From: Chrysochromulina tobinii
Taxonomy: Eukaryota
Direction of reading: 5' to 3'
NCBI GenBank assembly: GCA_001275005.1
Contig: JWZX01003398.1
Location: 1 to 64,000 of the forward strand
DNA length: 64,000 nt
The notes beneath the pieces were generated by a model that did no database searches, was not told the DNA's origin, and saw only the letters and a program-made list of their open reading frames with translations. Position numbers and translations under genes: made by a program. Below, piece by piece: positions 2,917 through 64,000 of this stretch (its first letter is position 1; each line of letters starts with the position of its first letter).

Positions 2917-2955
<39 letters not shown>

Positions 2956-28815: not shown

Positions 28816-28823
28816 GATCGTTA

Positions 28824-29145
28824 CCGGTAAAAAAACACCGGGGGAGCCGGGACACTTCGGACACGGCACAAACACGGGACACACGGACAGCCGACCCTCA
28901 CAACCATCCCAACCCACCAACGCACCCGCGCGACCGCGAGACGACCGAAGTGGGTTCGAGTGAAGCACCACTCCGACCCACCCCCCTTTTATTACCGCTT
29001 CGGTCGTCGCGCTGACGAGTGACGTGCGGGGTGTGTGTTGTTGGTGGGTTTGGTTGGTTGTGAGATTCGTCTGTGTGCCTTTGTGCGTCCGCGTGTTCCG
29101 TGTGTCTCGTGTGTGTCCCGGCTCCCCCCGGTGTCTTTTTACCGG
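28824..29145. mobile_element. 322-bp MITE with ~33-bp terminal inverted repeats and TA flanks (Tc1/mariner-type footprint)
   Basis: Left TA|CCGGTAAAAAAACACCGGGGGAGCCGGGACAC; right GTGTCCCGGCTCCCCCCGGTGTCTTTTTACCGG|TA. CA-rich left arm mirrors a GT-rich right arm. Confidence 0.85.
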
Positions 29146-29201
29146 TACGGTGCCGGGCAATACTCCGTTGTGTTGAGCATCAGAATTGACGAGCATCAGA
29201 A

Positions 29202-30506
29202 ATGAAAGGCTCCTCTCCCGAGGACAACGTCAAGCAGGCATTCGTCGCTGTTTTCATCTGTCTGCTTTTATCAGTAGTAGCTGCGCTCATCACTGATATT
29301 CGTCTCCAGCACCGATACCGAGGGTCCTCATTTCGTCAGCTCTCCGACCGCGAGCGCTACCTCATCCTCTCCACGGCAGTTGCTTCTTGATCGATGGCAC
29401 TGCCACCGTCGCCGTCATGGGTGCCACCAATTTGCCTCGATGGGTCCCACCTCTTCTTCTTTGGTTACAGTGAAGTTGGTCGGCACGTCACATGGATTCG
29501 TGAGCAGCTTGATTGCCTGCCATCATGCTCGCAGCAGTGCACTTCGAGTGGCAGCAAGCTTGCTGCTGGATCACACATTGGAAGCTGCAAACGCTTCAAC
29601 CTGACCGTCTCCAGCGTCACGCCAATGTGCTTCCAGGCCGGTGCTAAAAGTCGATTTACGAGAGAGGCGAAGGGTATGCTCAACATGTCGTCCAGGGATC
29701 TTAAGCACGAGGCCATTCGCCTCAGCGTTACAGCTGCCTTCACCGAGTTACGAGATGGGCTCTGCCGCGAAAATCGTTACGGCGGCATGGGCGGAATCAA
29801 CGCGTCGTGCATGCATGCGAGCTCCAAATTCAACATGAACTACAGGTGGAAAACTTTCCAGAGCGACGGATACGATGCCGGAGACCAAGCCCGCGTCCTC
29901 GAGGCGGCCAGGCGCGGAGGCCCAGTCATCGTCATCCTAGAAGGCGGCGGTCCACACCACTTTGCCAAGTTTCCAGAGCATCACCGAGTCAGGACAGGAA
30001 AAACAAAGCAGACCCTTTTCACCGCTGTAGAAGACGACTGGAGAATGCCACAAACATGGGTTGACGACTACATGATAGGGACTAAGGCGCTGCTGAGGCG
30101 CCATGCCACTGCGTACCCTTCCAATGTTTGTGTCCTGTGGAAGACGATGCACATCGGTCCACGCTCCAACAACACAAGCACCCACCACCCGAGTGTCGTC
30201 AACGGACTCCATCACTGGCTCAACCGTTTGGCGATCGCTGCAGCGCAAGATGCCAGGGTAGGGATTCTCGACCTTTCAGACCTGACCATGACCATGACGG
30301 CTACACCCAAGCTCACAGGTGCCCATGCGGCCGTGTCAGCTGAGGGCGATCCATACCATGGCTTTCCCCAAGGGGTGTTGGTTCCGGAGCTCTTGCAACG
30401 AGCCTGCACAAGGTGCAGTCTTTCAGTTCATCGCCCATCTGGGTCTCCAATGGTCTTGCCCAAGGATGTGATTCCATCTCAATGTGGAACTGCACCTGGT
30501 ACATGA
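29202..30506 (+). CDS. SGNH/PC-esterase-like protein (possible polysaccharide O-acetyl transferase or esterase); N-terminal TM segment separated by an in-frame TGA at 29388-29390
   Basis: CLDGSHLFFFGYS (GDS-like), GGGPHH, VLWKT and GDPYHG (DxxH). ORFs 29202..29390 and 29394..30506 share a frame. Confidence 0.55.
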
Positions 30507-34590: not shown

Positions 34591-37349
34591 TCAGGACAAA
34601 TTTCGTTGAGGCAGGGCGGCGGTCTTGTGGCCCTCGGAGAGCTTTGGTGGGGGCTTCTTGCCCTCAGCAGCGGCGCCTCCAAACAAGTCGAACGGTACAT
34701 CCCTCTCTTCCTCGTCTGTAGAATTCCCCATCGAATCTGAGTGACAAGCGGCCGCATGATCTTCTGGCGCGGCAACAGCCGGCGCTGCTGCTGGTCCTGC
34801 TGCTGGTCCTGCTGCTGGTCCTCCTGCTGGTCCTGCTGCTTGCCCTGCTGCTGGTCCTGCTGCTGGTCCTGCTGCTGGTCCTGTCGCCGGCACCTCCGCA
34901 GGCTCCTCCTCGCCAAGCGTTGTCCCGGGAAGCTCCCGCTCAAATGTGAGGGCCGTCGCCGCGTCGGCCCCGGGCTCGTGCTCGTAGGCGATGCCGTACT
35001 CATTGGCGCGGGTCTTATCGACCGGGTACAGGTATCGCTGGTACAAGAAGACCAAGAAGACGACGTCATCGCGAAGGCACGCGATCTTATGGTGGAGCGG
35101 CATCGAGACGAGCAGTGCAAACGCGTCGTCGATGAAGGTGTTGAAGGCCTTGTAGGCCATCACTCGCCATGGCATGTGTGCCACGCTCTTGAGCTTATAG
35201 TTGATGAAGAGCTGCGGCGTCATCGAGACGAACCCAAAGAGGTACACCGAGTCGGCCAACGATGAGATGACCCAGCTGTACCAGGTCGTGTGGGGGTAGT
35301 ACACGAGTGCATAGATGGCCCAGCCGCCCACTAGAGGCGCGAGCCCCACACCCAAAGTGCGCGTCGCAATCTCGTCAAAGCGCTCCGTCGCTCCCTCAAG
35401 CCTCACCCGCGCCGCCGCCGCTGCCCTGGTCTGCGCCGCCGCCGACCTCGTCTGCGCCGCCGCCGCCGCCGCCCCTGCCGCCCTCGTCTGCGCCACCGCC
35501 GGCGCCGCCTCATCCACCATGCTCGCCGCTGCCGTACCGGTCCCCGGCATCGCCGAGCGCGGCGCCGTGCCGGGCGGCGACGAATCGTCTTCATCGATAC
35601 GCGCCGCGGTGAGCGCCGTGTTGTGCGCCGTGTTGAGCAGCGCCGTGCCGGGCGGCGACGAATCGTCTTCATCGATACGCGCCGCGGTGAGCGCCGTGGT
35701 ACGCGCCGTGTTGAGCACCGTGTGAGGGAGGGTGGCGGCTGCTGCGCCACCCTCCGCGTCAGCCCCCGTCGCCCCCGTCGCTCGCGTCGGCTGCGTCGGC
35801 GGCCTCGTCGCTGCCTCGCGCGCTGCGGCCGACACCGCGGCGGCCTGCGCCGCGGCGTCCTGCGCCGCGGCGGCCTGCGCCGCGGCGTCCTGCGCCGCGG
35901 CGGCTACCCGTGCCCTAGACGCGCGTAAGATCTGGAGCACACGCACCACCTTCCACAGCTCGACAGCGGTCGAGAAGGTGTACGTAGCCAGCACAATCGA
36001 GTTGAGGTTGTCGGCGTCGAGTAGGTAGAGGTAGATGATGACAGTCTGGGCGGCGGACGAGATCACCGCGCGTGACGAGAGGCCGCTCATCGTCTCCTTT
36101 CCCTTCCAGAAGCCAATGTCACTCCGAAAGGCGAGCACGTCGAAGATCACGTGCAGGATGGAGATGATCTGTGAACCACCCCGCGCAAGGACGGCCAGTC
36201 AGATGCAGTGGCGCCATGGCAGACGCTCGGAAGGCACGGCGCAATCGCAGGTATTCGGAAGGCACTCGAGGGCGTGCGCGCGTCACTCTACCTGCATGCA
36301 ATGAGGGAGGTCATCAATGGCCATCGGAGGTCATCAGAGGTCATCAGCGAGGCGTGCGTATGGCACTCTACCTGCATCACCACGAATCGGTACAGGCGCT
36401 CCTCGGACAAAAGCTCGCGGATCTCGTCGAGCTCGGTGCCGAGACCGAGGCTCGCACCTGATGAGGGAGGCAATCAGAGGTCATCAGAGGTCATCAGAGG
36501 GTCATCAGCATCTCGCCCGAGGCCGAGGCTCGCACCGAGCGACTCAAAGAGTGAGCCAAGCTGCGCCATGATCCGGTGCCGACCGACCGAGATCGGCTTG
36601 AACTTGAGCTTGAGCCGCGGATGCGCCTTCTGCACGTCTGCCGACAATGGCAGCGCGTGCTTGCGCAGCAGCGAGAAGGTGTCCACGTAAAAATGGGGCG
36701 CGTACGTGCGCGCGTGCACGTCCCAGGACTGGCCTATCGGCGTGCCGTCGGGTGCCAAGAACGGCGACGCATACGCCCGTGCGTCCGTCACAAGCCGCAG
36801 CTCGCACATGCGGTACGAGTAGATGAAGTGCGGCACGCGGCCGTGGCGGTCAGCCGGCGCCAACTCGGCGGAGACCGTGCTGCTCGTGCTGGGGGCCTCC
36901 GTCACCGCCGGCTTCTCGTCGCTCGACGCGAACACGTCACCGAACACGTCACGCTCGAGCAGCATGCTGGCCTGCGAGCGCTCGCGCGCTTCGTACATCT
37001 GCACAATGTTGACCCTCGCCGCGGAGAGCACGTCGTCCGAGCCCGTGCGGGAGAGCTCAAACGTGAGCCACAGCTCGCGCATCTCACCTCGGCGCACGCT
37101 CGGTGGCACGGGAGTCGTTATTGCCGCCTCGAGCTCTTCGACCGAGCTCACGTTGGTCACGTTCCACACGGCGGCCCGAATGGCTCCTTCGCCCATGTGC
37201 GCTGTGATATCAACACGAGCTCCCCACGGCAATCTTGGGTGGTAGCAGCCATGCCGGAGCTTGCAGGCCGGAGGATAGAAGAGCACATAGAATTCCTTCG
37301 CGGACATTGCGATCCAGAGCACCATGACTGCTCCCACGTAGGTCCACAT
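34591..37349 (-). CDS. CLPTM1: CLPTM1-family multi-pass membrane protein; introns 36458..36535 and 36169..36371
   Basis: ILHVIFDVLAFRSDIGFWK, GLSSR, MTPQLFINYKLKSVAHMPW, YKAFNTFIDD, HKIACLRDDVVF and YQRYLYPVDKTRANEYG. Confidence 0.92.
36169..36371 (-). other. 203-nt compound intron: 80-nt unit (36292..36371) abutting a 123-nt unit (36169..36291) with no exon between
   Basis: ATGCAG|GTAGAGTG occurs at both the outer donor and the internal junction; only removal of both units gives VVMQ|IISILHV. Confidence 0.85.
36458..36535 (-). other. 78-nt intron: exon duplication + TGATGACCTC repeats + CTGATTGCCTCCCTCATCAG
   Basis: GGTGCGAGCCTCGG(C/T)CTCGG at both junctions; removal restores ESLGASLGLGTELDEIR. 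Confidence 0.9.
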
Positions 37350-40691: not shown

Positions 40692-43600
40692 ATGGCCAAT
40701 GCAACGCTGTCCTCGACCGCCGTCACGACCACCGCGTCGTATCGACCGTATCGAGCGCGAGCGCGCCAGACTGCCCGTGGGCGAGCTAATGTGTCCGCTT
40801 TGGCCTGCGTCATGGCGTGCATGGTCTCCTCGGCAGCAGGATACTCCGTGACGCCCACGACGGACTCCGTGATCTTCGACACCACGATAGACCTCCGCAA
40901 AAAGGCCTCGCAGGATGAGTACGGACACGATGACAAGGACGTGCCATGCGCCATGTGGGCCAAACAAGGAGAGTGCAAACGCATTCCGGTCTACATGCAC
41001 TCAAATTGCCCTGTGTCGTGCGGCGTATCCGCTCCTGCTCCCAGCTCGAGCCTGAGCTCGACCAGACCGACGTCAGGTGAGTCGAAAGACGGGTGCAGCT
41101 CGTGGTGCGCGGAACACACAGGGGCATTGGAGGTCAAGTGCAGCTTTATCCCGTGCAGCAAGTGTGCAGAGTGCGAGTCGCACAATGACGCTTCATTCAA
41201 TGAGCCTCGGGTCGGTGCTTGGCCAACCTCGGGGCATAAGACAGTCTCTAAAACACCGGCAGCCACGGCCCATGCACCGAGTTCAACCAAGACGGTCTTG
41301 GCCAAACCAACGTCGAAGGACAAGACGGACCTCAAAGCACCTACCACGATAGCCCCCGCACCGACACCAGCACTGGCAACGGTGGTGAAAGCACCCACGC
41401 CGGAAACGGCAACGGTCGTGAAAGCACCCACGCTGGCACCGGCGAAGATGGTCACCAAGCCAACCGTGGGGAACGCGTCAGACTTGCACGCGCCGACCGC
41501 GGTCCAGACGCCGAGCTCCAAGCCAACCGTGGGGAACGCGTCAGACTTGCACGCACCGACCACGGTCCATGCGCCGACCTTGGCCAAGCCAACCGTGGGG
41601 AACGCGTCGGACTTGCACGCGCCGACCTCGGTCTATGCGCCGTCCTTGGCCAAGCCAACCGTGGGGAACGCGTCAGGCTTGCACGCACCTTCAACCACGG
41701 TCTATGCGCCGTCCTTGGCCAAGCCAACCGTGGGGAACGCGTCGGACTTGCACTCACCAACCGCCGTCCATGCGCCGAGCTCCACCAAGCCAGCCTCAGG
41801 CGACAAGGCAGAGCCTTCTGATCTCAACTTGCCGACCTCGGTCGATGCGCCGAGCACTATCACTCCGAAGACAGAGGGATGCACCGACGCGAAGGACATG
41901 CCTTGCGCCGCGTGGGCCCAAAAGGGAGAGTGCCAACGCATTCCAGTCTTCATGCTCTCCATGTGCGCATCGTCTTGCGGCTGCCTCACGCCCGCTGCCG
42001 CTAGGCAGCTACTCATGAATATGGATCTCCTACGGCGTGATCCCGAGACACCGACCACGGTCCAGACGCCGAGCTCCAAGCCAACCGTGGGGAACGCGTC
42101 AGACTTGCACGCTCCGACCACGGTCCATGCGCCGACCTTGGCCAAGCCAACCGTGGGGAACGCGTCAGGCTTGCACGCTCCGACCACGGTCCATGCGCCG
42201 ACCTTGGCCAAGCCAACCGTAGGGAACGAGTCAGGCTTGCACGCACCGACCGCGGTCTACGCGCCGACCTTGGCCATGCCGACCGCGGGACACAAGACAG
42301 ACCTCAACTCTCCGACCAACAAGCAGCGGACGACCGTCGTCATCATGTCCGATCGTTTCGAAGCTGTCGTGGTTGCAATCGGCTCTCTCTTCATGAACAG
42401 CCCAGAGAGCGACATTGACGTCTGGCTCATCGGCGATATGCAGCGAGAAGCAAAAGGCAACGTGTCTCTGCTCCAGCGGCTCAACGCTGCGCTCCAGCCG
42501 CAAGCGCCGGAGCAGACGATCAGCGTGATGGGCATCGACGAGGCAACAGCACTGCTCGAGGAGGATGGCGTGACTCCGGTTTGGAAGTGGCCACAGTTTG
42601 GCTCGCTGGGCGCTGACCAGGATCAGGACCATAAGCCAGAGACCGTGCTGCGTCCAGAGCCGTGGGACTATGACAACATGCACCACGACCCGTTCAACTT
42701 GATTCGCTTCTACTTGCCGTACCTCGGGCCGTTCAGAGAGCTCGATTCCCTCTTCTTATGTGACGATGACATCGTCGTTCAGAAGTCCATTTCCACGCTC
42801 GAGGTACCGATGGGCGATGGCCCCATCATCGCCGCGACATGCAACGGATGGCTGTGGGCCGAGGACTGCATGCGCAACGAGCCGTATTACAATGGAAAGG
42901 GCTGGCTCGACTACCCGGCCACGTATCTGGGCAAGGACAAGGCACACGGATATAGTGGGTGCACGAAGAAGGCATCGGAGAGCGGAAACCGCATTTGCCA
43001 GAAGGACGAGTTTGCGGAGACGGTAATGCGCTGGAGCAAGAAGTTCAACGGCAAAGAGCTCATCCCCGCCGACCAGCCGCGCTGGAACTTTGGTTTGTCG
43101 CGCGTCAACTTGACCGAGTGGAGAAAACAGAACATGACGCACGTCTTCGATAGCTACATGCGCGCCAACTATGAAGCCAAGCTTATCCCCGAGACGTCCC
43201 TCGCTTTTGGCCTCGGGATCCCGTTCTTCGCATTTGCGGACAAGATTAAGTGCTGGAACGACGTTGTGGGCGACCCGGCCTTCGTGGACGGCCTCGGGTA
43301 CATCTCGAAGGCCGACTTGAGCTTGAACAACCTGAACGCGTCGGAAGTGCTTGGACAGGCAAACGTGCTTCACTGGTCTGGCCGCAACAAGCCGTTTGAC
43401 CCACAGTCTGAGATGGAGCTTGAGCTCTACAAGCCGTTCGATGACGTACAGGAATACTATGTGGGCAGGTCGCAGAAGTTGTACGCCAAGGGAAGTGAGC
43501 TGAAGACGCAGCAGATTGTAGCGCCGGAGAGTGGCCTCCACGCCATCGTCAGGCAGACGCCCGATGCGTCGAAGCAGAGCACCCGCTCGCTCTTGTATGC

Positions 43601-46600
43601 AGACCCTTATTCGGGGGCCGAATGGTTCTTGGAGCTGCTCGATGAGACGCCTGACGTCTGTGCATCGGGCTCGACCGGCAATCCGACGGTTGCCTTCGCA
43701 GGAGAGAGCTTCATCCCGCCCCACTTTGAGGCCGTCCAGAACGCCATCCCAGTCTGCGCTCAGAAGCGCGCCTGCCTCTGGAGCTTCATTGCACAAAACG
43801 TGCCCCGGTACGTGGAACAGCGTCACAGCTGGTGCCCGCATACCAGAAGAGGTGGAGGGGAGGTTGGTACCTTGGATTTGTTTGACACTACACTGGATTT
43901 GTTCGAGATCCATGACATGCACGGTCAGATGCTTTGCTCTTGGGCCGATCGCTTGCAGACGATGTACCCCAATCGCACCAGCTACTCTGATCTGGGCGGG
44001 ATCCAGACGCTCTGGAACCTCTACGAGCACAATGTCTTCTCGATGGCGACGGATCTCGTCCCGTGCACCCAGGCGTGCGGGTTCAAACCCGTCCGCATGC
44101 TCAAGTTCTTGCGCGCTTGGGCCCAGCCGATGATGAACGGAAGCGAGCCCGCTTATTCGTGGCGCGACAACGGCGATGCGCCCAAAATATTTGTGGGCGA
44201 CTTTGCGGGCGAGCACTGTCACGGCGAGGCCCTGCCGGGAGGAGGCTGCGACGGCAGCGAGTCCTACTTGCCAACGATCAACTGGGACGCATACAAGATT
44301 GTCGAGCTCATCCGCTGGAACCTTCTCGATCGTTGCCTCGCACAGACCGAATTCGCCATCGGGATCAACGAAGACCCGACTTTCACCACTCAGTCTTCCA
44401 ACGTCGAGACGGGCGACGTCGACTTGGACGACTTGCTGCGCTGCATGAGATACTCGAGCGCACAGCGTGACGCGGACCTTCTGCGACTCAATGTCTTTTC
44501 TGGCGAGCGCCTCGCCGATTGGATGACGCTCCCCTATGAGATGTGTTCCATGCCGAGCCACATCCAGGGATGCGTCGACGCCGCGGCAGCCCACGTCAAC
44601 GAGCAAGCCTTCAGGATTGTCGAGAGACCCCACAGTGTGGCAACCGCGACTGAGCAGGCCCACATGACTTCAACCTCTGCTCTTGTCGAAGATTTGAAGC
44701 GCCGACGCTGGCGACGATCGAAGGGAAACCAGCTGGAAACTCGCCGGCGCGTGAGCGTGCAAGGTGACGGGGGCGAGACACAGCCCGACTCGGTACGTTC
44801 CATGCCGACGATCGACGCTGATTGGTTGTCAAAATACCAAGAAGATAGTCTCCACTCAGCCAGAGTTCCGGAGCGCATCTTCGCGCAAGAGCACGCGGAG
44901 CGAACTGACGGTGACCATTTCGTCACAGCACTGCAGAGATACATAAGAGCGCCGCCGCCGCCGCCTATCAAACGAGTTGCGTCTTCGAGGCAATGTTGCT
45001 TGGAGGGTCTATCCACTTTTCAGAAATGTCTTCTGAAGGGCATTCCTGTTTGCTGCAAACCTTGGGATCAAGCGTGCCTCAGGATGCAAGCCGGCGGCGG
45101 TATCGATCCAGTTACTGGCAAGTATGTCCCTGGCCCGAACTTTGACCCCAAATATGACCCTACGAAAGTCGGCCCTCCACCTGCAGGCTGGAGAGCCCCC
45201 CCGGCAGGCAAAACCTATTCTTATGACGACGACGACGAGAATGGTGGTGGAAGAAAGAAATGTAAGAAAGGTCAGCCCTGTAAGGCCGGAGAAGACGGCG
45301 ACACCTATTCTTACGGCGATGAAGCAGGTGGCGGCGGTGGAAAGAAAAAGTGCAGAGACAAGAAAGGAAAAATCATTCCCTGTCCCGCCGCCGGAGAAGG
45401 AGAAGAAGGCGACACCTATTCTTACGGCGATGAAGCAGGTGGTGGCGGAAAGAAAAAGTGCAGAGACAAGAAAGGAAAAATCATTCCCTGTCCCGCCGCC
45501 GGAGAAGGAGAAGAAGGCGACACCTATTCCTACGACGAGAACGGTGGCGGAAAGAAAAAGTGCAAAGACAAGAAAGGAAAAATCATTCCTTGTCCCGCCG
45601 CCGGCGCCGGAGAAGAAGGCGACACCTATACCTACGACGAGAATGGAAACCGGAAAAAGTGCATACCCAAACCAGGCAAGCCCTGTCCCGTTGGAGAAGG
45701 CGGAGCGGGCGAAGAAGGCGACGTGAATGGAGGACGGAAAAAGCCTGTCGCTGGCGGCGGTGAAGGCGAAGAAGGTGATGAAGACGAGAATGGTGCGAGG
45801 CGACGATCGCCTCCGCCATCAGGATCGCCAGGATCAGAGGGATCTCCGGATGATGGTTCACGCGCTCCCCGCGCTCCGAGCGGGGCTGGATACGGTTTCC
45901 ACGGATTCACTCGCCGTACCATTCGCCGCGGCACCGTGCTCGAGCTGGCCGCTGCCGATGTAGAACATGGTCGCACGTCGCGCTCCTCTCGATGGCTGGG
46001 TGTTGCTAACGCCGAACAGCTTTCCGCCGGTCTGATCCACGCTGGGTTCGCTACCTTTATCCAGCCGATCTACTGCTTCGCGTGGGAGGCGCATGCCGAC
46101 GGCAACGAGATTGCCAAGTACCTCGCAAAGCTTCCTGAGCAGTACATTGTTCCCGGCTCGAGCGCGTCGACGGCATTCAACGCACGTGTCTTCAAAGACG
46201 AGTTCGACGAAGAAGTCGACGCTCGGACCCACGCGCTCATCGCGTTTGGTCAGGTCGATGACGCCACGTGGGTGCACAAAGTGCGCGCTGCTACGAGCCG
46301 ACCTGTGGTGCTCCTGGGCCTCATGCGCGACGTCCTCGCTCATCGCGTCCAGCTCTTCTACAGCGACGATGCACGTCGCCACATGGCCGAAAGGTCGTCG
46401 TCGACGTTCGTGAAAGCGATGCTGCATTCGTGGATGCAGAGCGGCGAGTACCCACGCGATGCTCAGCTTGAGTACATGTACGGCTTGAATGCCACTCTTC
46501 GCGAGCTCCCCATCGACGACGTCTGGAAAGCTCGCAACGCATCCGCTGTTGCGTCCGGTGTAGATGTTGATAACATCGCCCCCGCTGCCTCAGTGTATGT

Positions 46601-49600
46601 GGGTCCCGTTGGAGACGCGCAGAATGTACGCCGGAGCTTGTGCGTGTTTGCGCACTCGACCTCGCTGCCGATTCCGTGGCTGCAGTATGAGACCGCCGTG
46701 GATAGCGCGAGCAGCACCGTTCCGTCAAAGCTCCTCGCGCACGTCGACGAGGACATCGCCGCCGCCATGCTTGCCATGGAGCCGAGAGAGTTTTACTACG
46801 TCGCTCGCGCTCTGGATACCTTTGAAGCCTTTGCGGAGGAGTATGGGTGCTTGGAGGAGCCAACAGAGGCGGCCCTGCTAACACCAAAATACGGTGCTGG
46901 ACCGCTCACATACAGGAGCAGCACTATTGTCAAAGATTCAATCGGCGGCGCGACCTCGGTCAACACGTTTTCGGGCGATGACATCTCAGACACGGTTGAG
47001 AACCCCACGCCCACGGCGATGGCGCTCCCAAGGAAACCATTCACCGGCAGCTCGCCTTCAGACTATCCACTCTACTACTTCCACCACGTGCCGAAGACTG
47101 GCGGGACTACGCTCAGCGACTATCTCATGCAGCTCCCTCGACAGTACAAGGTGCCCGGGTCGGAGCGCTCGGGCGCATTCAACGTATCCATCTTCAGGAG
47201 GGCAGAAGATGAGGTGGCCATGCGACGAAACTGTCTCATCGCATTCAGCCACATGCAGGTGCGCTCGTTTATGGACGTCATTCGTCGGTCCAAACTAGCA
47301 GACAGGAAGATCGAAGTCATCTTCATGATGCGTGATATCCTCCCTCATCGCGTGTCGTTCTTCCACGAGATGATCGGGCCAGAGGCGCACGGCCACGACC
47401 AAGCTGACCTCGATGCCGGAAAGACTGTCGCACGCCCGTATGTGGACTTCGCAACGTGGGCTGCGAAGGACATCGACCCTGAGATGGCGCAAGTGGCTTG
47501 GTTGACAAACCATTCACATGAGACGGAGGACTTTGCGCCAGTTGCCACAGCTGAGTGCATAAAGGACCAAAACTGCCGCGACCCGAAGATGGACAGCTTC
47601 CAGCTCAGACCCCTTTACAAATTGAACTTTGCCTGGGCGAATGTCCCCATCCAGGAGGTTCATGAGCAGCTTCATGCTGAGCATCCTCTCGAATCGTGCG
47701 CACCCTTTGCAGCTACCGACGGGCAAGAGAACGAGGTGCTCTTCCGTCACTGTCCAAATGCTACTGCAGACGTGGGTCTCGCTCTCATCGGGCATCTGAG
47801 CCTTATGCGCGAGACGCTCTGCCTGATCGACCACATGCTGGGCGTGCCCGTACCGTGGAACGGAGTCGCCCACCAGGGAATGAACTGGCGCTTCAAGAAG
47901 CTCCGGCCGATGGATGCCGAGAGCAGCTTCGACAGCTCCTCGGCCAACGAGCTTCTGTCACGCGAATCTCGTGAGCTCATCTTCAACTCGATGACCAAAT
48001 CCAAGCTCATGGAGCAGGCGGCCATCTACCATTGCGGCCCGCCGCCGCCGCCACCCGCCGCAGAGCCGCCTTCGACGATCCTACCACCATGGGATGCGGC
48101 CGCTGAATTACCACGCGAGAGACTCTACTTGGCCGACGAGATGTCGAAGCTAGCTGGAGGAACGGTGGAACCTCCCTGGCGGCACCGGACCTCATTTTCG
48201 AAGTGCGGGGAGGAGAGAATGGTCACCAGCGAAGAATCCGCAGCTGAGGTCGGTCTCCTCTCGACGTGCGATCCAGAGTCGTGCCTTGTCATGTCGTCTG
48301 GCTGCGGCTCACGTCCCGAGTGCCAGGGCTGCGGCTCGCTGTGCCATGGAAGCTCCTCATCGGACGCCAGTGCGTGGTCCTTGGATGGGTTGGCCACAGG
48401 GCTCTCAGTGTATGGCACGGACCCCATCGGCACCGTGAAGACCGAGAACCGCTCGCTTTGGCGCAATGTTAACCTCATTGTCAGGTGGTCGGACTTCGAG
48501 CCGAAACCAGACGAATTCGACTGGGCAGCATTCGACTCGCTGCTGCTCGACGTTACGAAGAGGAACAAACCGTTCGCAGTGGGGATCACCTTTCTCTCGG
48601 GTCCGAACTACTACCCTCAATGGCTCTTTGAGTCGCCGTTCGAGGTGACCAAGTACGCTGAGGTCTGCGGACACCGGGAATGGAACGTGAAAGACGCCGA
48701 TGCGTGTAATGAAACCGCGTTCGCGGTGCCCAATTTCCACGATGTCACCTACATGGCTCGCTACAAGCGCGCGCACAAGGCGCTCGCGTCGAAGCTCAGT
48801 GATATGCGCGTCATCAACAGCCAGCTCAGGCTTCTGTTTTTGCAAGCGTCCATTGGAAGCGGCATTCAGAACGCGCCAGTCTACTTCCACCCAAATCAAA
48901 CCGAAGCGGACTACGTCTGGACGGATCCTCAGGGTGTTTCGACGCCCGCGGATGCGAGCTGGGATCAGTGCGGCACCTGCGGTTTCGATGCGTTCGCTCC
49001 GCCTCGCAATGTGTCCTTGGATCAGTTCTGGTGCCCGAGCGGTGCTACAAGCACGGGTATCATCGTTTCTCGGCGGCCGGCCTTCGAGCAGTACGCCCAG
49101 AGCCTGACCGCATTCCTTTACAATGACGTCTACGCGACGCACATCGAGGACGCCGGGATGCGGCTGATGGTGACGAGCGACTATCCGACGACATGGGTGA
49201 ACTTCGCAAATGGAATGAATAGTGCCGGCCAGACTGAGAAGCGGATGCAAGATGTGCAGCTGTTTACCAATGAGTGGCTCGATGCGAATGCCCCCGGCTC
49301 TTGGCTGATGCGCAGCAAAGAGGGCGAGGGCGCCGGGGTGTCAGGTGAACGCACGCGCGCCGCCCACTCAATCCTTAACGTCTTCAGGGTGACGGAGGAT
49401 GGACCCGTGCGCGCCCGTGCCGACCTGGACAAGTTCTGGTGCTGGACGGGCGAGGAGGGGAGCCGCGGACAGCTGGGCGCGGAGCCGGTCGCGAAAAGCT
49501 GCCTGATGCAGAACTGGCACCTGTATGCTGTAGCCATGTGGGCGCTCACAACTCGCATCGACTACTGGAACATTCCGCTCACAGCTGCAAAGCAGCAGCT

Positions 49601-52022
49601 GACGGGAACTGACTTTGATGGCGTGTGGAGGTTTCTGAATCGCTACAGTGGTGTCCGCTGGGGCTGGCAGTCTCCGGGGGCTTGGATCGGCTTCCGGGAC
49701 GGCCTCGACACGCTCGACGCGGAGCGCTTCTCCGAGGCCAAGTTCGGCGCGCTACCCAGAAACTGGCGAACGATGTCCTTGCGCGCATCGCAGTCGCCTG
49801 AGAGCCAAGCGTTGCTTCTGAATCGGCAGCGTTCGATCTGCCACTCGTTGGCAGCGTATGGTTGTCGTCTAGAGATAGACGAGGCCACCGACCTTGGCAA
49901 GGTAGCACTAGCTTATGGCAACGGCACCAACGACGTCAACCCAGACGTTTGGCGGAGCGACTACGGCATGTTCATGCAACGCCTGGACAACAGCTCCGGA
50001 AGCGTGGGCTACTGGTGGCAGGGCCCGACAGACCAGCTGTACGGCCGCTTCTCGCGGGGCTTCGCGCGCCCGCAAGCGACTATTGAGCTCTTGCTGGACC
50101 AGGGACTGTGGGGTGGGCTCCCGCTGACCCCACTGTGGAATGGGGAGCCAAGGCTTGTTCACCTCACTGTGCGCCTCGTGTTCCTCGACAGCTCAGTCGG
50201 CAAGTTTTTCCTTGGGTACGACGCCTTGGACGGCCCCCGGGGATGGGTGGTCGACACCAAAGGCACGTCGCGCTGGCGGGAGGTCACCTTTGCTATCGAC
50301 AATGGACGCTTTGCCCGCGGTGACGGTAGCGGGCCCAATGGTGCCGACGTGTGGCTGCGCGACATGAGCCCATGTGACAGTTGGACCGACGCCGACTGCG
50401 CTCAGAAGCCGACGCTCTTTGACAGCCTCGAAGTGGTTGATGTGGCGAGGGACCAATCAGTTGTTGACCCCGCGCAGTTTATCGACGAAGATCATCACGT
50501 GCGGGTAGACCCTGAGCAACTTGTTGGTGAAGATCATGATTACTACGTGCTCCCCGCGAACCCCGCACCTCCCTTGCTCGCCGCCAGTGCACCGTGCCAC
50601 TGGGGACACGACACCCTGGACGTGCCGTGCGCCCTGTGGGCCCACCAGGGCGAGTGCAAACTTATCCCTGAGTTTATGCACGCTAAGTGTGCTGCGTCAT
50701 GTGGCTGCCCCGCGCCTGATTTTACTCGAACGAGTCTGACCTCGTCCACCATCGCCGCGGAAAAAGCAGTGGCAGACCGAGCGGCGGCGGAGAAGGCGGC
50801 GGCAGAGCGTGCGGTAGCGGAGCGAGCGGCGTGGGAGCGAGCGGCGGCGGAGCGAGCGGCGGCGGAGAAGGCGGAAGCGGAGCGAAGGGCGGCGGAGCGA
50901 GCGGCGGCCCAGAAGTCGGCGGAGGAGGATGCGGCGGCAGAGAAGGCCCAGCCAGCCTCGGGCGGCACACCGGTCCGCACAACTCCCCCGTACCTCAAAA
51001 CACCGACCAGAGTCGATGCGCCAGTCCAGCCACTCCACCTCAACACAGCACCGGCCACAACCGAGATCAAGACACCGGCCACGGTCGAGGAGCCCAAATT
51101 CGCTCCTGGCCCAAGTCCGACGGCACCAGCCTCGGGGACGGCAGTCCGCAGAACAGATGGCAGAACTCCGTGGTACCTCCATACACCGGCACCGTTTGAG
51201 ACGCCGATGACGACCCAGCCGACTGCGCCGGCCATCGCCGAGAACAAAGCACCAACCTTGGTCTATGCGCCGACCTTAGCCACGCCAACCGCGCCGGCCA
51301 CGGCAGTACGCCGAACACCGTGGTACCTCAATACACCGGCCACGGTTGTTACGCCGATCACGACCCAGCCGACCGCACCGGCCATCGCCGAGATCAAAGC
51401 ACCAACCTCGGTCTATGCGCCGACCTTAGCCACGCCAACCGCGCCGGCCACAGCAGTACGCAGAACACCGTGGTACCTCAATACACCGGCCACGGTTGTT
51501 ACGCCGATCACGACTCAGCTGACCGAGAAGGCGGCGGCCGTGAAGGCGGCGGCCGAGAAGGCGGCAGCCGAGAAGGTGGCGTCCGAGAAGGCGGCGGCCG
51601 AGATGGCGGCGGCCGAGAAGGCGGCGGCCGAGAAGGCGGCGGCTGAGAAGGCGGCGGCCGAGACAGAGCGCCTGGCAGCCGAAACAGCAGCAGCCGAGGC
51701 AGCGGAGGCGAAGGGGGCGGCGGCGCGCAAGCCGAGCTTGCTATGGAAGAAGCGATCAACTAGTGCACTTGTGCCAGAGCCCATCAACTTTGCAACTCCG
51801 CTCCCTCTCGATTTTGTACCCGTTCGCAAGCCCAAGTCGCCCGAGGGCAGCGAGGCATCGGGTGAGCATTCCAATACCTTTGCGACTCCGCTCCCTCTCG
51901 ATTTTGTACCCGTTCGCAAGCCCAAGTCGCCCGAGGGCAGCGAGGCGTCGGGTGAGCATTCCAATACCTTTGCAACTCCGCTCCCTCTCGATTTTGTTCC
52001 CGGGCGATTAAAAGCACCATGA
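40692..52022 (+). CDS. Giant 3,776-aa secretory-pathway multidomain protein: ShKT x3, Pro/Thr/Ala repeats, GT8 glycosyltransferase, 3 sulfotransferase-like domains, GH42/GH35-like barrel, AEKAA repeats
   Basis: Sh[12 protein letters not shown]...[11 protein letters not shown]8 RFYLP, DDDIVVQ, NLTEWR and [10 protein letters not shown] (~42330-43460). [14 protein letters not shown]-binding loop (~47080). [17 protein letters not shown]...PQWL (~48490). Confidence 0.85.
45210..45790 (+). repeat. Coding tandem repeats [36 protein letters not shown], ~110-125 bp unit
   Basis: Visible in DNA and translation; locally A/G-rich. Confidence 0.9.
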
Positions 52023-53974: not shown

Positions 53975-54010
<36 letters not shown>

Positions 54011-57566: not shown

Positions 57567-59762
57567 CTACTCGATCGGGGTGAAGTCGACGTAGTCGGCA
57601 TCACCCTCATTCGGATCGGCTCGCGACTTGCGACGGGCGCGTTCCAGTAGCACGCCGGCGCCAAGGAGGACCGCGAGGGCACCGAACGCAACGCGCACGC
57701 TTGGGTAGGAGGCGAAGGCCACGCTACCGCCCGAGCTTCCCTCCACGTGCGCCGCCGCCAATCTCGGCGCGTATGCGAGCAGTTGCATAGCCCATCCTTG
57801 CGTAGCAGGAGGTGCCTCATACCAGCGCGCAGGGCACGCGGATGCCACACCAGCGTCTTTGAAATCGGTGACGTTGCGAGGAAACCAGCCGCGCTCATGG
57901 GCCTCCAAAAACGACCAGTGCTCGCTGAACTCTGTTCGGAAGTTCCAGAAAAAGGACCTGCGGCGAGAGACGCAAGCGAGCATGACGATGAGGCGCAACG
58001 CAGGCACGTAGCAGGGCGTGCGCTACAACCAAAGAGGATGTAGCATCACGCACCCGTGGGCCTTGTTCCATGAGTTGATGAGTCGCTTGGCAAGTCCACC
58101 CACAAAGGCATCCTCGTCATCCCACTTTTTGTAGGCGGGGCATTTGCCGAACTCGGGCCCCGATTGCCCCTGACCGCGCGGCCCTTGGTACGGCAACGAT
58201 GGGTCCGGAGCTTTGTGCTTCGCATCTCCTGTGTAACCGTCAGGGCACGTGACCATCTCACACGCACTCTTCGGATAGCCCGGCTGGTTGTCGTTGAAGC
58301 CGTTGAGCCACATGCAGCAGCTGTCGGTCGCTAGAGACCACTCGCCGGTGATCATGGGCATGTCGAGGAACGTCTCCATGTCGTGCAAGATCCCATCCAG
58401 CCCGCACGCCTTGTTGTGGTAGAAGGAGGCCTCCTGATCATACTCCCACGCCATGTACGTGTGCGTGTCCATCGCTTTGTTGGGGCATCCACGCATAAAG
58501 TCCCACCAAAGAGCGGGATACCCTCGGAATGAGTCTTGCATCACGTACTTCCAGCTCGGCACGCGTGCACGCACCTGTGACAAAGCACCGTGTTCGCGCT
58601 CGAGGATGGCATGAGGTGAGAGCAGCGATGAGAGAGGATGGCATCGGGTGAGAGCAGTGATGAGAGAGTCGATGGTCTCTCAGGCCGCGCACCTTCTGGT
58701 AGCCGTCCCAATAGAACTGCTTGAGCGGCTCGATTGGAGTAAAGTACCAGGGTTCGTTGAGAGGCTCCAGGCCCCAGATGACGGGCTCCTGCTGGTAGCG
58801 GTCAATGATCACGTCGAGGACGGACAGCGAGTGGTTGATGTGTTCATAGTTGTACTCCCCGCCGTCTGCAGAGGGCGAAGGTAAGGGGAGAGATGAGTCG
58901 CAAGAAACGGCCGCCAAAGGAAGCCGCACATGGCGCGCAGCTCACATGTCCACTTCGCCAAGTCCCAAGTGCCGATCCAGTCAGCACTGCGCACGCCCCA
59001 GTGGTTAAAGACAGGCAGCCCTGTGGCGGGGTCGAGGTCCCACTTGAGGTTCCACGTACGCCCCGAGTTGTCGAACCCATTCTGCGAGCCCGGGGCGGTG
59101 TGTACGTCGATCAGCATCTTGAGGTTATATTTCCGGCAGAGCTCGATGAGGCGGTTGAGCTCTTCGAGCGCGCCATCCCAGCAGCCAATGAACGGCTCCC
59201 GCGGAACGAAGATCCCTACGAGGTGAGCAGAAAGAAGCGTTCAGAGTCGGCGCAAAGTGAGGGCGTGGCATGGAGATCGAAGCGTTTGGCACTCACAGTC
59301 CGGGACCGGGACGCGGATGACGTTGGCTCCCGCTGCTGCGATGGCCTTGACGTCCTCATCACGAACCCATGCTGCCCAATGCAAGCGAAGCTGCCTATTT
59401 GCCTCATCGTCACCGAGGACCGTGCAGAAGGAGTAAGCATCCATCGCAGTGTGCGCCGCAGTCTCTTCCACGCTCTTATATTTCTCGTCTGTGCCAAGGA
59501 ACTGATAGAACAGTGACGGCGTCACCCACGGCTCAATCACAAGCCAGCCACCTATCGCCGGACCGGATACCTTCCAATTCTCCTCCGGGTCCGTGATCTT
59601 GACACCTTCGGGACAAGAGTATGGATTGTTGGCGTTGAGCTGGAGACTTGGAATTGAGAATGTCGGCAGTTGAGCCCCATCTTGTGATCGTACAGCAGGC
59701 GGAGACCCACGCGCGAATGCGCTGCCCAGAAGCAGCATGCGAGACGTGGTGGTGATGACCAT
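57567..59762 (-). CDS. Glycoside hydrolase family 5 exo-1,3-beta-glucanase-like, C-terminal TM anchor; introns 59216..59296, 58866..58945, 58575..58692 and 57958..58053 (start codon uncertain)
   Basis: GGWLVIEPWVTPSLF, IRVPVPDW, LIDVHTAPGSQNGFDNSG, LNEP (acid/base), GEWSLAT (nucleophile) and FFWNF; all four introns are GT-AG and join these motifs. Confidence 0.92.
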
Positions 59763-60076
59763 CAGGCGGCGGGCGGCAAGTCGTCGTGCTCCCACGCGTG
59801 TCCGCCGAGAGGCCGCGCGAAATCTCAATGTGCCGAGATCGTGCATCCCCATTGGTGCCGCACACATCCGAGAGGCCAGGCACGGCCGGCGCAATCAAAC
59901 GGTTGTCAACGGCGGCGGCGACGCATTCCCCAACACACATTTGCGTTCACCAGGATTTCCTTTTCGGGAGTCGCACATCTAAAGAAACGACCCAAATAAG
60001 GGCACGGTTTTCAGGAAGCGCTGCTCGCTCTCGCTGCTGGGCCTCGTCGTGCCGAGCCTGTCCTTCTGGATAAGAA

Positions 60077-63000
60077 ATGCCCGACGCAGTGAGCGCTGAG
60101 ACATCAACCAGCTTATACGATCGACGACGAGCGCGCCTCTCGAAGAGTGTCAGCAGCCAAGCTCGGCGTGCGTATGTCTTCGCTTTCGCTTGTATGATCT
60201 CCTCGGCAGCTGGATACACCGCAACTCGAGCTTCAAACGTCGTGGCAGAGACGAACGTCGTGGCAGAGACGAACACGAGTGTTGCTCTTGGCACAACAGG
60301 CAAGCCGCTCAGCACGCCGACCACGGTCGATAAGCTGACCTCGACCCAGCAAATCTTTGACCACGCGACAGACCTCCGCAGAAAGTCCTCGGAGGAAGAG
60401 TACGAGCAAGACGCTGTGGACGTGCCGTGCGTCCTGTGGGCCAAACAGGGCGAGTGCAGACGTATTCCGGTGTATATGCGCTCCAAGTGCCCTGTGGCGT
60501 GCGGCGTGTCCGCTCCCACTCCCAGCTCGAGCCTGACCTCGACCACGCCGGCCTTGACTGAAGAGAAAGATGGGTGCAAGTCGTGGTGCGCGGATCACAC
60601 CGGGCCATTGGAAGTCAAGTGCAGCTTTGCCCCGTGCAGCCAGTGTGGAGAGTGCCTTGTCCAAGCCGAGATGCTTGCTCGGCAAGCAAGCCGGCTAGGG
60701 AACACGTCAGAGGTCCACGCACCGACCACAGTCAATGCGCCGATCACGACCCAGCCGACCGCGCCGGCTATCGCCGAGATCAAAGCACCGATCGCGGTCG
60801 ATGCGCCGAACTTGGTCCTGCCGACCGCGCCGGCCATTACCTATATCAAGGCACCGACCACGGTCAATGCACCGAGCTTGGTCCTGCCGACCTCGGGGAG
60901 GACAGTCCTCAAAACACCGGCCACGTCTAATGCGCCGAGCTCTACCAGACCGATTGCAGGGAACACGTCTGAGCTCCACGCACCGCCGACCACGGCCTAT
61001 GCGCCGACCTGGAGCGTGCCGACCTCGGGGCAGAAGACCTACAAGACACCAACGACGGTCTATGCCCCGAGCTTGACCCAGCCGACCGCGCCGGCCATTA
61101 CCAAGATCAAGACACCGACCACGGTCCATGCGCCGAGCTCGACCACGCCGACCTTCAATTCACCGACCGGCAAGGAGCGGACGACCGTCGTCATCATGTC
61201 CGATCGTTTCGAAGCTGTCGTGGTCGCCATCGGCTCTCTCTTCTTGAACAGCCCAGAGAGCGACATCGACGTCTGGCTCATCGGCGATATGCAGCGAGAA
61301 GCGAGAGGCAACGTGTCTCTGCTCCAGCGGCTCAACGCTGCGCTCCAACCGCAAGCGCCGAGGCAGACGATCAGTGTGATGGGCATCGACGAGGCGACAT
61401 CGCTGCTCGAGGTTGATGGCGTCTCTCCAGTCTGGAAGTGGCCACAGTTCGGCTCGCTGGGCGCTGACCAGGACCAGGACCATCAGCCGCGGACCGTGCT
61501 CCATCCGGAGCCGTGGGACTATGACAACATGCACCACGACCCGTTCAACCTGCTGCGCTTCTACCTGCCGTACCTCGGACCGTTCAGAGAGCTCGATTCC
61601 CTCTTCTTATGTGACGACGACATCGTCGTTCAGAAGTCTATTTCCATGCTCGAGGTACCCATGGGTGATGGCCCCATCATCGCTGCGACGTGCAACGGAT
61701 GGCTGTGGGCCGAGGACTGCATGCGCAACGAGCCGTACTACAATGGAAAGGGCTGGTTGGACTACCCGGCCACGTATCTGGGTAAGGACAAGGCACATGG
61801 ATACAGTGGGTGCACGCGAACAGCAGCGGAGAGCGGGAACCTTATCTGCCAGAAGGACGAGTTTGCGGAGACGGTGCTGCGCTGGAGCAAGGATATCCAG
61901 GGCAAAGGGCTCGTCGCTGCCGACCAGCCGCGCTGGAACTTTGGCTTATCGCGCGTCAACCTGACCGAGTGGCGGGCGCAGAACATGACTCACGTCTTCG
62001 ATAACTACATGCGCGCCAACTACGAAGCCAAGCTGATCCCCGAGACGTCCCTCGCGTTCGGCCTCGGGATCCCATACTTCGCGTTCGCGGACAAGATCAT
62101 GTGCTGGAACGACGTTGTGGGCGACCCGGCCTTCGTGGACGGCCTCGGGTACATCTCGAAGGCCGACTTGAAAGCTAACCACCTGAACGCGTCGAAGTTG
62201 CTTGGAGAGGCGACCGTGCTCCACTGGTCCGGGCGCAACAAGCCGTTCGACCCCAAGTCCGAGATGGACCTCGAGCTCTACAGGCCGTTCGATGCCGTGC
62301 AGGACTATTATGTGCACAAGCCGCCTTCGCAGAGGACTCAGCAGGTTGTGGTGCCGGAGAGTGGCCTCCACGCAATCGTGAGGCAGACACCCGATGCGTC
62401 GCAGCAGAGCACCCGCGCGCTCTTGTATGCAGACCCTTATTCCGGGGCGGAGTGGTTCTTGCAGCTGCTCGATCAGACGCCTGATGTTTGTGCGTCAGGC
62501 TCGGCTGGCAATCCGACGGTTGCCTTCGCAGGAGAGAGCTTCATCCCGCCCCACTTCGAGGCCGTCGAGGACGCCATCCCAGTCTGCGCTCAGAAGCGCG
62601 CCTGCCTCTGGAGCTTCATCGCAGAAAACGTGCCTCGGTATGTGGAACAGCGCCGCAGCCTGTGCCAGAGCACTCACAAAGAGGGTATTGAAAGAAAGGG
62701 TACTTTGGCGGAGTTTGCTCTGCTTGAGGTCCACGACATGCACGGCGACATGCTTTGCTCTTGGGCCGATCGCTTGCTGACCATGTACCCCAATCGCACC
62801 AACTACTCCGACCTGGGCGGGATCCAGGCGCTCTGGAATCTGTACGAGCAGAACGTCTTCTCCATGGCAACGGATCTCGTCCCGTGCACCCAGGCGTGCG
62901 GGTACAAACCCGTCCGCATGCTCAAGTTCATGCGCGCGTGGGCCCAGCCGATGATGAACGGAAGCGAGCCGGCTTATTCGTGGCGCGAGAACGGCGATGC

Positions 63001-64000
63001 GCCCAAGTACTTTGTGGGCGACTTTGCGGGCGAGCACTGCGATGGCGAGGCCCTGCCGGGAGGAGGCTGCGACGGCAGCGAGTCTTACTTGCCAAAGATG
63101 AACTGGGACGCATACAAGATTGTCGAGCTCACCCGCTGGAATACTCTCGATCGTTGCCTCGCACAGACTGAATTCGCCATCGGGATCACCGAAGACCCGG
63201 CTGTTTCCGTTCAGCTCGACGGTGAGTCGAATCTCTCAGAAGGCAACGTCGACTTCGACGACCTGATGCGCTGCATCAGATACTCCGGCGCGCAGCGTGA
63301 TGCGGACCGCCTGCGACTCAATGTCTTTTCCGGCGAACGCCTCGCCGATTGGATGACGCTCCCCTATGAGATCTGTTCCATGCCGAGCCACATTCAGGGA
63401 TGCGTCGATGCCGCAGTAGCCCACGTCAGCGCGCAGTCTTTCAAGTTTCTCGGGAGACCTCACAGCGTTGGAACCGACATGATTGAGAATGTCAACATGG
63501 ACTCCACATCAACTCTTGTGGAGGATTTGAAGCGCCGACGCTGGAGACGAGCACAAGGGAACCAACTGGCACCCCCCCGGCTCCCATCCCAGCTTGCCCC
63601 GAAGCCGCACGGGGAGACGCTTGACGCGGATTGGTTGTCAAACTTCCAGGAGGACAGTTTCGTCACAGCACTCCAGACTAACGTAAAATACGTAAGAGCG
63701 CCGCCGCCGCCGCCGTTCAGAAGAGTCGCGTCTTCGAGGCAATGTTGCTTGGAAGGTCTACCAACTTTTCAGAAATGTCTTCTGAAGGGCATTCCTGCTT
63801 GCTGCAAACCATGGGATAAAGCGTGCCTCAAGATGCAATCTGGTGGCGGTCTCGATCCAGCTACTGGCAAGTATGTCCCTGGCCCGAACTTTGATCCTAA
63901 ATATGACCCGACGAAGGTTGGTCCTGCTCCTGCAGGCTGGAAAGCCCCCCCGGCAGGAAAAACCTATTCTTATGACGAAGACGACGAAAATGGTGGTGGC
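60077..64000 (+). CDS. 5' part of a paralog of the 40692..52022 giant protein, running off the window (ShKT, PT repeats, GT8, first sulfotransferase-like domain)
   Basis: ATG at 60077 is in frame with the last codons. Near-identical blocks [42 protein letters not shown] and RQCCLEGL. Absent from the ORF track, consistent with no stop inside the window. Confidence 0.9.
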   Translation, partial: MPDAVSAETSTSLYDRRRARLSKSVSSQARRAYVFAFACMISSAAGYTATRASNVVAETNVVAETNTSVALGTTGKPLSTPTTVDKLTSTQQIFDHATDLRRKSSEEEYEQDAVDVPCVLWAKQGECRRIPVYMRSKCPVACGVSAPTPSSSLTSTTPALTEEKDGCKSWCADHTGPLEVKCSFAPCSQCGECLVQAEMLARQASRLGNTSEVHAPTTVNAPITTQPTAPAIAEIKAPIAVDAPNLVLPTAPAITYIKAPTTVNAPSLVLPTSGRTVLKTPATSNAPSSTRPIAGNTSELHAPPTTAYAPTWSVPTSGQKTYKTPTTVYAPSLTQPTAPAITKIKTPTTVHAPSSTTPTFNSPTGKERTTVVIMSDRFEAVVVAIGSLFLNSPESDIDVWLIGDMQREARGNVSLLQRLNAALQPQAPRQTISVMGIDEATSLLEVDGVSPVWKWPQFGSLGADQDQDHQPRTVLHPEPWDYDNMHHDPFNLLRFYLPYLGPFRELDSLFLCDDDIVVQKSISMLEVPMGDGPIIAATCNGWLWAEDCMRNEPYYNGKGWLDYPATYLGKDKAHGYSGCTRTAAESGNLICQKDEFAETVLRWSKDIQGKGLVAADQPRWNFGLSRVNLTEWRAQNMTHVFDNYMRANYEAKLIPETSLAFGLGIPYFAFADKIMCWNDVVGDPAFVDGLGYISKADLKANHLNASKLLGEATVLHWSGRNKPFDPKSEMDLELYRPFDAVQDYYVHKPPSQRTQQVVVPESGLHAIVRQTPDASQQSTRALLYADPYSGAEWFLQLLDQTPDVCASGSAGNPTVAFAGESFIPPHFEAVEDAIPVCAQKRACLWSFIAENVPRYVEQRRSLCQSTHKEGIERKGTLAEFALLEVHDMHGDMLCSWADRLLTMYPNRTNYSDLGGIQALWNLYEQNVFSMATDLVPCTQACGYKPVRMLKFMRAWAQPMMNGSEPAYSWRENGDAPKYFVGDFAGEHCDGEALPGGGCDGSESYLPKMNWDAYKIVELTRWNTLDRCLAQTEFAIGITEDPAVSVQLDGESNLSEGNVDFDDLMRCIRYSGAQRDADRLRLNVFSGERLADWMTLPYEICSMPSHIQGCVDAAVAHVSAQSFKFLGRPHSVGTDMIENVNMDSTSTLVEDLKRRRWRRAQGNQLAPPRLPSQLAPKPHGETLDADWLSNFQEDSFVTALQTNVKYVRAPPPPPFRRVASSRQCCLEGLPTFQKCLLKGIPACCKPWDKACLKMQSGGGLDPATGKYVPGPNFDPKYDPTKVGPAPAGWKAPPAGKTYSYDEDDENGGG

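Follow-up and report, generated by a model that had tools for sequence, protein, structure and literature searches.

The 64,000-nt stretch of Chrysochromulina tobinii DNA analysed here (the window: positions 1 to 64,000 of contig JWZX01003398.1, forward strand) contains no N and carries at 40692-52022 (+) a single open reading frame (ORF) of 11.3 kb, corresponding to 3,776 aa. The locus raises the question of whether this is one gene, whether its sequence is authentic as assembled, and what the product would do. An earlier note, made from the letters of the sequence, had described an uninterrupted ORF in which a GT8 glycosyltransferase, three sulfotransferase-like (ST) domains and a glycosidase-like barrel succeed one another; the frame is present and the domain order and coordinates were correct within ~50 bp. 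At local GC content a frame of this length has a probability of ~1e-49 of arising by chance, and third-position GC (GC3) across the domains of the ORF was 0.62-0.83.

A family of single-frame giant genes

The ORF belongs to a real, undescribed family of single-frame giant genes with at least seven paralog types in C. tobinii. A search of long proteins (2,099 candidates scored) returned eight relatives of 2,427-3,502 aa at 60-84% identity, and a metagenome scan yielded 27 loci out of 87 pattern matches. The modules present share one stop-free frame in all 27 loci, down to ~60% identity; the run from GT8 to the C-terminal beta-sandwich is complete in 16 of them, the rest being cut at contig or locus ends. 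Counted from the first Met, complete family frames measure 2,918-3,583 aa. All six module motifs occur in the same order in 24 of the 36 proteins of at least 2,000 aa, a set that includes the window protein (P0001) and many near-duplicates. Five copies, lying in both orientations, sit together on a 101-kb contig. Sequences recorded under the name C. tobinii agree at 99-100% with seven paralog types, each of which is annotated there as a fragment (282-2,053 aa), and the window GT8 segment is 100% identical to C. tobinii Ctob_000039. Because public annotation splits the family into such pieces it has gone unrecognised, hidden there as fragments. Copy number was taken from the metagenome loci and named records only.

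Pairwise comparison of the window with eight loci gave ratios of nonsynonymous to synonymous substitution (dN/dS) of 0.16-0.39 in all six modules, degenerate ones included, wherever the pair differs; by this measure every module is under purifying selection. The modules and other features of the ORF are as follows, with a second paralog that had escaped the earlier note:

40692..52022, plus strand: ORF, 3,776 aa; hybrid, 5' part from paralog A and 3' part from paralog B
40788..40841, plus strand: signal-peptide-like hydrophobic segment behind a basic N-region (by eye; best 19-residue hydropathy 1.56)
40932..41024, plus strand: ShK-like module 1 (Pfam PF01549, best stretch aa 81-111)
41358..42318, plus strand: Pro/Thr/Ala-rich mucin-like repeats, 66-bp unit, with NAS sequons; ShK module 2 (41880-41984) breaks the run
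42324..43466, plus strand: GT8 glycosyltransferase, predicted active (Pfam E 6.5e-11, motifs, PDB 3TZT profile match)
43569..44720, plus strand: ST1, Stf0/Sulfotransfer_3-like, likely inactive, followed by a conserved basic cluster (ESM Atlas features; PSB-like loop, see below)
45288..45640, plus strand: variable linker with Lys/Cys-rich repeats and acidic ones containing Tyr (102-bp unit, x3.3)
46062..46886, plus strand: ST2, degenerate duplicate of ST3, likely pseudo-sulfotransferase (blastp, motif columns)
47049..48041, plus strand: ST3, Sulfotransfer_2-like (Golgi carbohydrate type), predicted active (ESM Atlas, motifs)
47961..48058, no strand: 98-bp stretch identical between paralogs A and B, switch point of the chimera
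48369..49661, plus strand: (beta/alpha)8 glycosidase-type barrel, unnamed family near GH35/GH42/GH14, likely impaired
49659..50456, plus strand: C-terminal beta-rich domain(s), common to standalone barrel relatives
50595..50708, plus strand: third ShK-like module, placed by eye (Pfam gives three stretches)
50757..52002, plus strand: paralog-B tail made up of repeats: Ala/Glu/Lys (15-bp unit), Pro/Thr (150-bp unit) and a terminal one of 90 bp
60077..64000, plus strand: second paralog, type C, cut by the window end after GT8, ST1 and the start of the linker; 3,475 aa in locus L010

The ShK modules that had been named earlier were recovered by Pfam as three stretches in the window protein (E 4.8e-14), and the Pro/Thr-rich spacers with repeated NAS sequons were likewise as described, with nine NAS sequons in the ORF, seven of them within the N-terminal repeats. 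In all ten complete family N-termini examined a short hydrophobic segment comes after a basic region, and a hydropathy scan of the rest of the ORF returned no segment of transmembrane strength and no hydrophobic C-tail. The linker at 45288..45640 differs or is missing in P0007, P0008 and P0009. In P0009, P0085 and P0091 the repeats of Lys/Cys and acidic Tyr type between ST1 and ST2 give way to another Cys-rich repeat linker of up to ~1,000 aa. An insertion of the linker within ST1 itself was considered and not confirmed.

That the frame instead comprises several ordinary genes or chance frames, as public gene models of 282-2,053 aa imply, is very improbable. In its favour, short models with introns are annotated for C. 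tobinii and C. parva; against it, the stop-free frame holds in every locus and RNA contigs cross sites of modelled introns or ends, e.g. 43291-43685. The 14 RNA runs containing the stretch were freshwater metatranscriptomes (shares 0.17-0.44; six distinct runs compared with the window). At 88% likeness, a level that takes in paralogs too, contigs of four RNA libraries filled 30, 30, 29 and 29 of the 30 bins; they bridged GT8 to ST1 (43291-43685), ST1 to the linker (44532-45048), ST2 to ST3 (46850-47184) and the sandwich to the tail (50408-51204). None of the 15 joints listed (34 joints in total) had GT..AG ends, and in run X2 at 97% likeness two CT..AC joints belonged to minus-strand neighbours of the ORF, which itself had no splice-type joint. 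The RNA data fit an intronless transcribed gene.

Members of the family's sequence clusters are C. tobinii and C. parva records; more distant relatives comprised P0008 (57-73%), P0097 (43%) and five GT8 fragments (42-58%). With regard to spread among algae, a point raised in the earlier note, the named members come from Chrysochromulina (C. tobinii, where the family is multicopy, and C. parva), and the family is present at the 27 metagenome loci. Among viral contigs there were five pattern matches, none confirmed. P0008 carries an extra C-terminal segment (residues ~2850-3200) that by eye resembles a second glycogenin-type transferase; it was matched neither by Pfam nor by the GT8 profile built here. 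The neighbours of the paralogs are unrelated housekeeping-type genes (10 long ORFs scanned), so the genes do not form a glycan operon. The earlier note had not recognised the architecture, and likewise no description of it was found in the literature searched, most subscription journals and supplements being outside its reach.

The paralog switch at 47961-48058

The window ORF is a hard-switch hybrid of paralogs A and B. Window positions 37040-48058 show 0 differences from locus L001, and beyond that point identity drops to ~85%; positions 47961-58038 show 0 differences from locus L014, with ~87% identity upstream. Over their overlaps with the window, loci L002 and L003 each show one difference. 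The 98-bp overlap of the two matches is the longest exact block common to paralogs A and B, the next being 64, 56 and 53 bp. L001 and L014 come from one assembly, in which both parents are intact. Paralog A is 3,443 aa long (L001/L003) and paralog B 3,596 aa (P0024); these are taken as the real proteins. Whichever way the join arose, both parents carry the full architecture. Of the single 3,776-aa chain claimed earlier, the open frame and domain order stand, and the existence of exactly this chain is not confirmed.

Since the hybrid form occurs in 0 of the 27 loci, the 3,776-aa sequence is probably an assembly misjoin. The alternative, in which the join alone is a real recombinant allele produced by non-allelic recombination between paralogs, is possible and clearly the less probable account. 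The join keeps the frame, the paralogs are mosaic elsewhere, and named C. tobinii records show an A-type GT8 followed by the second paralog (A-then-C) as in the window; these records speak against a misjoin, and they may not be independent of the window's join. Against recombination, A is intact in three loci and B in two, both in one assembly, the switch falls in the longest common stretch, and the switch extends to the flanks of the ORF, the window lacking both the DNA downstream of A and the arrangement upstream of B, with B's 5' half remaining on a separate 7,224-bp contig among the named C. tobinii records. The window protein was not found in a collection of 15 billion sequences.

Mosaicism is also seen in other assemblies, where a 100% identical barrel recurs in three copies of one contig, so that the parents are themselves blurred by gene conversion or further misjoins. 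These copies (L013, L016 and L018, on one 101-kb contig) are 99-100% identical in ST2 and differ by 11% in ST3; either gene conversion or assembly collapse accounts for the pattern. As a practical warning, paralog A or B, and not the window sequence, is suited for further work.

State of the enzyme-fold modules

The GT8 module, placed earlier at ~42330-43460, passed the curated cutoff of Pfam PF01501 over 42324..43466 (42.7 bits vs 24.3, E 6.5e-11, profile columns 8-248 of 253). The motifs DxD and HxxGxxKPW are given for GT8 in the accessible text of PMC3522684; in the window they read D691-D693 (at 42762) and HWSGRNKPF (at 43371), the latter with F for W. DDD is found in 24/24 and HWSGRNKPF in 25/25 family sequences holding the region. 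A GT8 profile search of PDB matched 3TZT (E 2.5e-4) and, weakly, WbbM 6U4B (E 0.048), the DQD of 3TZT reading ETS in the window, and the single-sequence PDB search returned UVR8 noise only. No GAUT/GATL sequence was present among the matches of the GT8 homologue and PDB searches; as a sign of that subfamily, a resemblance to GLGY is tentative. From its motifs the module is likely active.

The nearest ESM Atlas clusters to ST3 were of Sulfotransfer_2 (0.96, 193/256 features) and comprise diatom and haptophyte proteins, 13-22% of members being assigned to the family. The HxPKTGGT loop described earlier was seen as HHVPKTGGT at 47082, and the putative catalytic set is K2135, H2187 and S2222; PK(T/S)GGT and the His are present in 36/36 sequences and S2222 in every row of alignment A1. 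These residues were assigned by spacing: Lys to His is 52 and Lys to Ser 87 residues, as compared to 56 and 87 in cerebroside sulfotransferase (CST; K85/H141/S172 in the accessible text of PMC10918841), and the loop has its counterpart in P82-K83-T84/H142 of HS2ST (PMC6081452, text available in part). On this basis ST3 is likely active. Only three close matches to ST3 at single-domain length were obtained from 873 candidates.

ST2 is a duplicate of ST3 (blastp, 22.5% identity, E 1.7e-17) with H1801, Q1854 and Q1887 at the Lys, His and Ser columns; in 36/36 sequences these columns read H/N, Q/R/S/L and Q/N, and the module is likely a pseudo-sulfotransferase. ST1 lies nearest to ESM Atlas clusters of Stf0/Sulfotransfer_3 (0.95, 171/256 features; the family on 16-57% of members). 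The loop of ST1 that corresponds to the one binding 5'-phosphosulfate (PSB loop) reads YAD(P/Q)(Y/F/H/G)(S/A)G(A/S)(E/D)WF, with no Lys or Arg, in 25/25 sequences. Judged by the PSB consensus, which we take to be a basic residue plus a Thr pair, ST1 is likely inactive. A cluster of the form (K/S)xRRWxR follows it in 25/25 sequences holding the region.

The AlphaFold model of the barrel and beta-sandwich had a pLDDT of 83 and a pTM of 0.88, and Foldseek matched the barrel to GH35 (E 1.8e-8). VIA comparison gave Z 12-12.7 with a root-mean-square deviation of 3.6-4.5 over 304-382 residues at 8-13% identity, GH35, GH42 and GH14 barrels matching about equally. The module fell below the Pfam cutoff for GH42 (13.9 bits against a required 21, the match being confined to the N-terminal 60 columns), had no NCBIfam match and gave one weak match in a single-sequence PDB search. 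The modelled fold is a (beta/alpha)8 barrel like those of clan GH-A. The earlier description of a GH42/GH35-like barrel with a probable beta-sandwich agrees in fold (AlphaFold, Foldseek) and coordinates, and fails at the GH42 cutoff and at the Asp/Glu pair.

The barrel points to an unnamed glycosidase family with 274 representatives. In 84 aligned standalone relatives outside the loci, an Asp after beta-4 is conserved in 77/79 and a Glu at beta-7 in 79/82. The window barrel has Q2726 and D2911 at these positions; among the 36 giants the Asp column reads Q/E/L/D in 20/10/5/1 sequences, the Glu column D/Q in 35/1, and the Asp+Glu pair occurs in none. A quick tree (35 rows) nests the fused barrel among standalone proteins keeping both acids, so that loss of the pair looks derived; the barrel is likely inactive or impaired. 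The bacterial members, at 13 loci (L028-L040), belong to Acidobacteriota and Bacteroidota. In the five Bacteroidota loci scanned a Melibiase-family (alpha-galactosidase) gene was adjacent in all five, a TonB receptor was found in two and a sulfatase in one, which together are a weak pointer to galactose-containing glycans. Further members of the unnamed family near GH35/GH42 are P0262, P0264, P0098, P0101, P0102 and P0104, the standalone ones being secreted-looking.

The loss of catalytic residues, which the earlier note had considered, applies to ST1, ST2 and the barrel; GT8 and ST3 keep their motifs. Three apparent pseudo-enzyme modules are in this way kept under selection in one chain.

Possible function and known systems

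The reading slightly favoured here is a secretory-pathway enzyme that extends and sulfates a surface glycan, with GT8 and ST3 active and the three degenerate modules serving as binders or scaffold. Which genes produce the sulfated surface glycans of haptophytes is poorly worked out. The giant protein would most likely enter the endoplasmic reticulum via its signal-like segment; in the Golgi lumen GT8 would add sugar from a UDP donor and ST3 would move sulfate from 3'-phosphoadenosine 5'-phosphosulfate (PAPS) onto the glycan, as the motifs and the established chemistry of the families suggest. ST1, ST2 and the barrel, selected without catalytic residues, may bind the chain, position the active sites or scaffold the protein. 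The product would most likely be a sulfated coat or mucilage, possibly with galactose in it, on the surface of a cell that lacks scales. C. tobin is described in the available text of PMC4580454 as naturally wall-less and without scales, unlike scaled haptophytes; the scale/coccolith polysaccharide context proposed in the earlier note does not fit, because of this reported lack of scales. The proposal of a secretory multi-enzyme that polymerises, sulfates, and edits or binds a glycan survives as to a single secretory-type chain of GT8, sulfotransferase and glycosidase folds, and falls as to every module working, three of the five lacking catalytic residues. With GT8 physically linked to a Golgi-type sulfotransferase, the family singles out two enzymes for assays in an alga that can be cultured.

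Several observations weigh against this reading. The RNA contigs that bridge the four module boundaries are short and none spans the whole gene, so that they cannot demonstrate a single transcript; among the pieces listed none bridges ST3 to the barrel (2,513 further pieces unlisted). The signal segment is weakly hydrophobic and assigned by eye, and without a membrane anchor Golgi residence of the product is unexplained. Pfam gave no match for ST1, ST2 or ST3 in the window (one paralog ST3 at E 0.064), PDB profile searches with ST1 and ST3 found nothing, and the AlphaFold model of ST2-ST3 (15-row alignment) failed with a pLDDT of 37.6; its best VIA Z of 5.3 was P-loop-like and the model was not used. 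As Pfam, PDB profiles and AlphaFold gave no fold confirmation, the residue equivalences of these modules rest on motif spacing. The earlier claim of three sulfotransferase-like domains keeps its coordinates, its Atlas matches (0.95 for ST1, 0.96 for ST3) and ST2 as duplicate of ST3, and lacks a Pfam match for any. For the barrel, a catalytic role of the Asp and Glu columns is inferred from conservation and strand position, and no characterised member of the family was found. The barrel keeps a conserved Glu after beta-6 (E2886), and the 10/36 giants with a swapped Glu/Asp pair could retain some activity.

Among the rival explanations, a line of five catalytic modules acting in sequence to polymerise, sulfate three positions and trim is improbable: all folds are supported and every module is under purifying selection, and the motif losses make five working sites unlikely, ST2 lacking the Lys, His and Ser in 36/36, ST1 the basic PSB residue in 25/25 and the barrel its Asp+Glu pair in all 36. 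The variable mucin-like repeats flanking a conserved core, a signal segment without an anchor and multicopy genes with mosaic variation would suit a self-decorating matrix protein, whose acceptor would be its own Pro/Thr-rich and Tyr-acidic repeats and which, having glycosylated and sulfated itself on the way, would be exported as coat, cross-linked by the ShK and degenerate modules. GT8 does include the self-glucosylating glycogenin. In P0007 and P0008, however, these repeats are short or of another kind, and the acceptor is hypothetical, which leaves this account doubtful. Slightly more speculative is a self-building sulfated proteoglycan, which would bring its own glycosyltransferase and sulfotransferase, decorate its mucin-like repeats in Golgi transit and employ three dead modules as lectins in building a naked haptophyte's surface coat, with diversity arising from shuffling among ~10 paralogs. 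About as unlikely is a polyprotein that cleavage at conserved multibasic sites would separate, within the secretory pathway, into enzymes and structural pieces. The (K/S)xRRWxR cluster after ST1 (25/25) and a basic W(K/R)(K/R) near the C-terminal end (20/36 by one pattern) are candidate sites; the former may belong to the ST1 fold as its tail, to judge by an unconfirmed resemblance, and the GT8-ST1 and ST3-barrel junctions show no obvious basic site of this kind.

Other genes were noted in the window and at one related locus:

12434..21295, minus strand: 2,953-aa ORF, long internal repeats by eye
27778..29196, minus strand: sulfatase (Pfam E 3.2e-17)
29394..30506, plus strand: SGNH-like by eye; no Pfam match
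34591..37349, minus strand: CLPTM1-like gene, with a spliced joint at 36168-36372 in run X2
59241..59867, minus strand: GH5-like by eye; no Pfam match
L018:18046-20979, minus strand: neighbouring algal ORF, Pfam ADP-ribosyltransferase and ankyrin

LARGE1/2 (GT8+GT49), EXT1/2 and NDST1 are bifunctional Golgi glycan enzymes. Together with bacterial WbbM they share with the giants the fusion of transferase or sulfotransferase modules for one glycan, and the GT8 fold is common to the giants, LARGE and WbbM (PDB 6U4B, the weak match above). These systems have two catalytic modules, the Golgi ones with a membrane anchor, whereas the giants have five enzyme-fold modules, three of them degenerate, with ShK and mucin-like repeats in multicopy proteins of 2,900-3,600 aa. 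ST3 matches HS2ST and cerebroside sulfotransferase (Sulfotransfer_2, PF03567) in its PSB P-K-T loop and His and Ser spacing and, unlike members of PF03567, is below Pfam detection. The giants' barrel has the (beta/alpha)8 form of GH35/GH42 beta-galactosidases, GH14, GH5 and GH10 at 8-13% identity; unlike GH35/GH42 it belongs to an unnamed family, whose conserved Asp/Glu pair it has not kept. PKZILLA of Prymnesium likewise comprises giant haptophyte multi-module genes (bioRxiv 10.1101/2024.01.29.577497); these are polyketide synthases, far larger and with no module order in common. In DSEL/DSE2 (dermatan sulfate epimerase 2) a working glycan enzyme is fused, as in the giants, to a predicted sulfotransferase domain without detected activity, according to the accessible part of PMC9957132; it differs there in being an epimerase of 1,222 aa with one ST domain and no GT8 or barrel. 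By analogy, the giant family resembles LARGE/EXT/NDST and DSEL in its presumed working and belongs to none of them.

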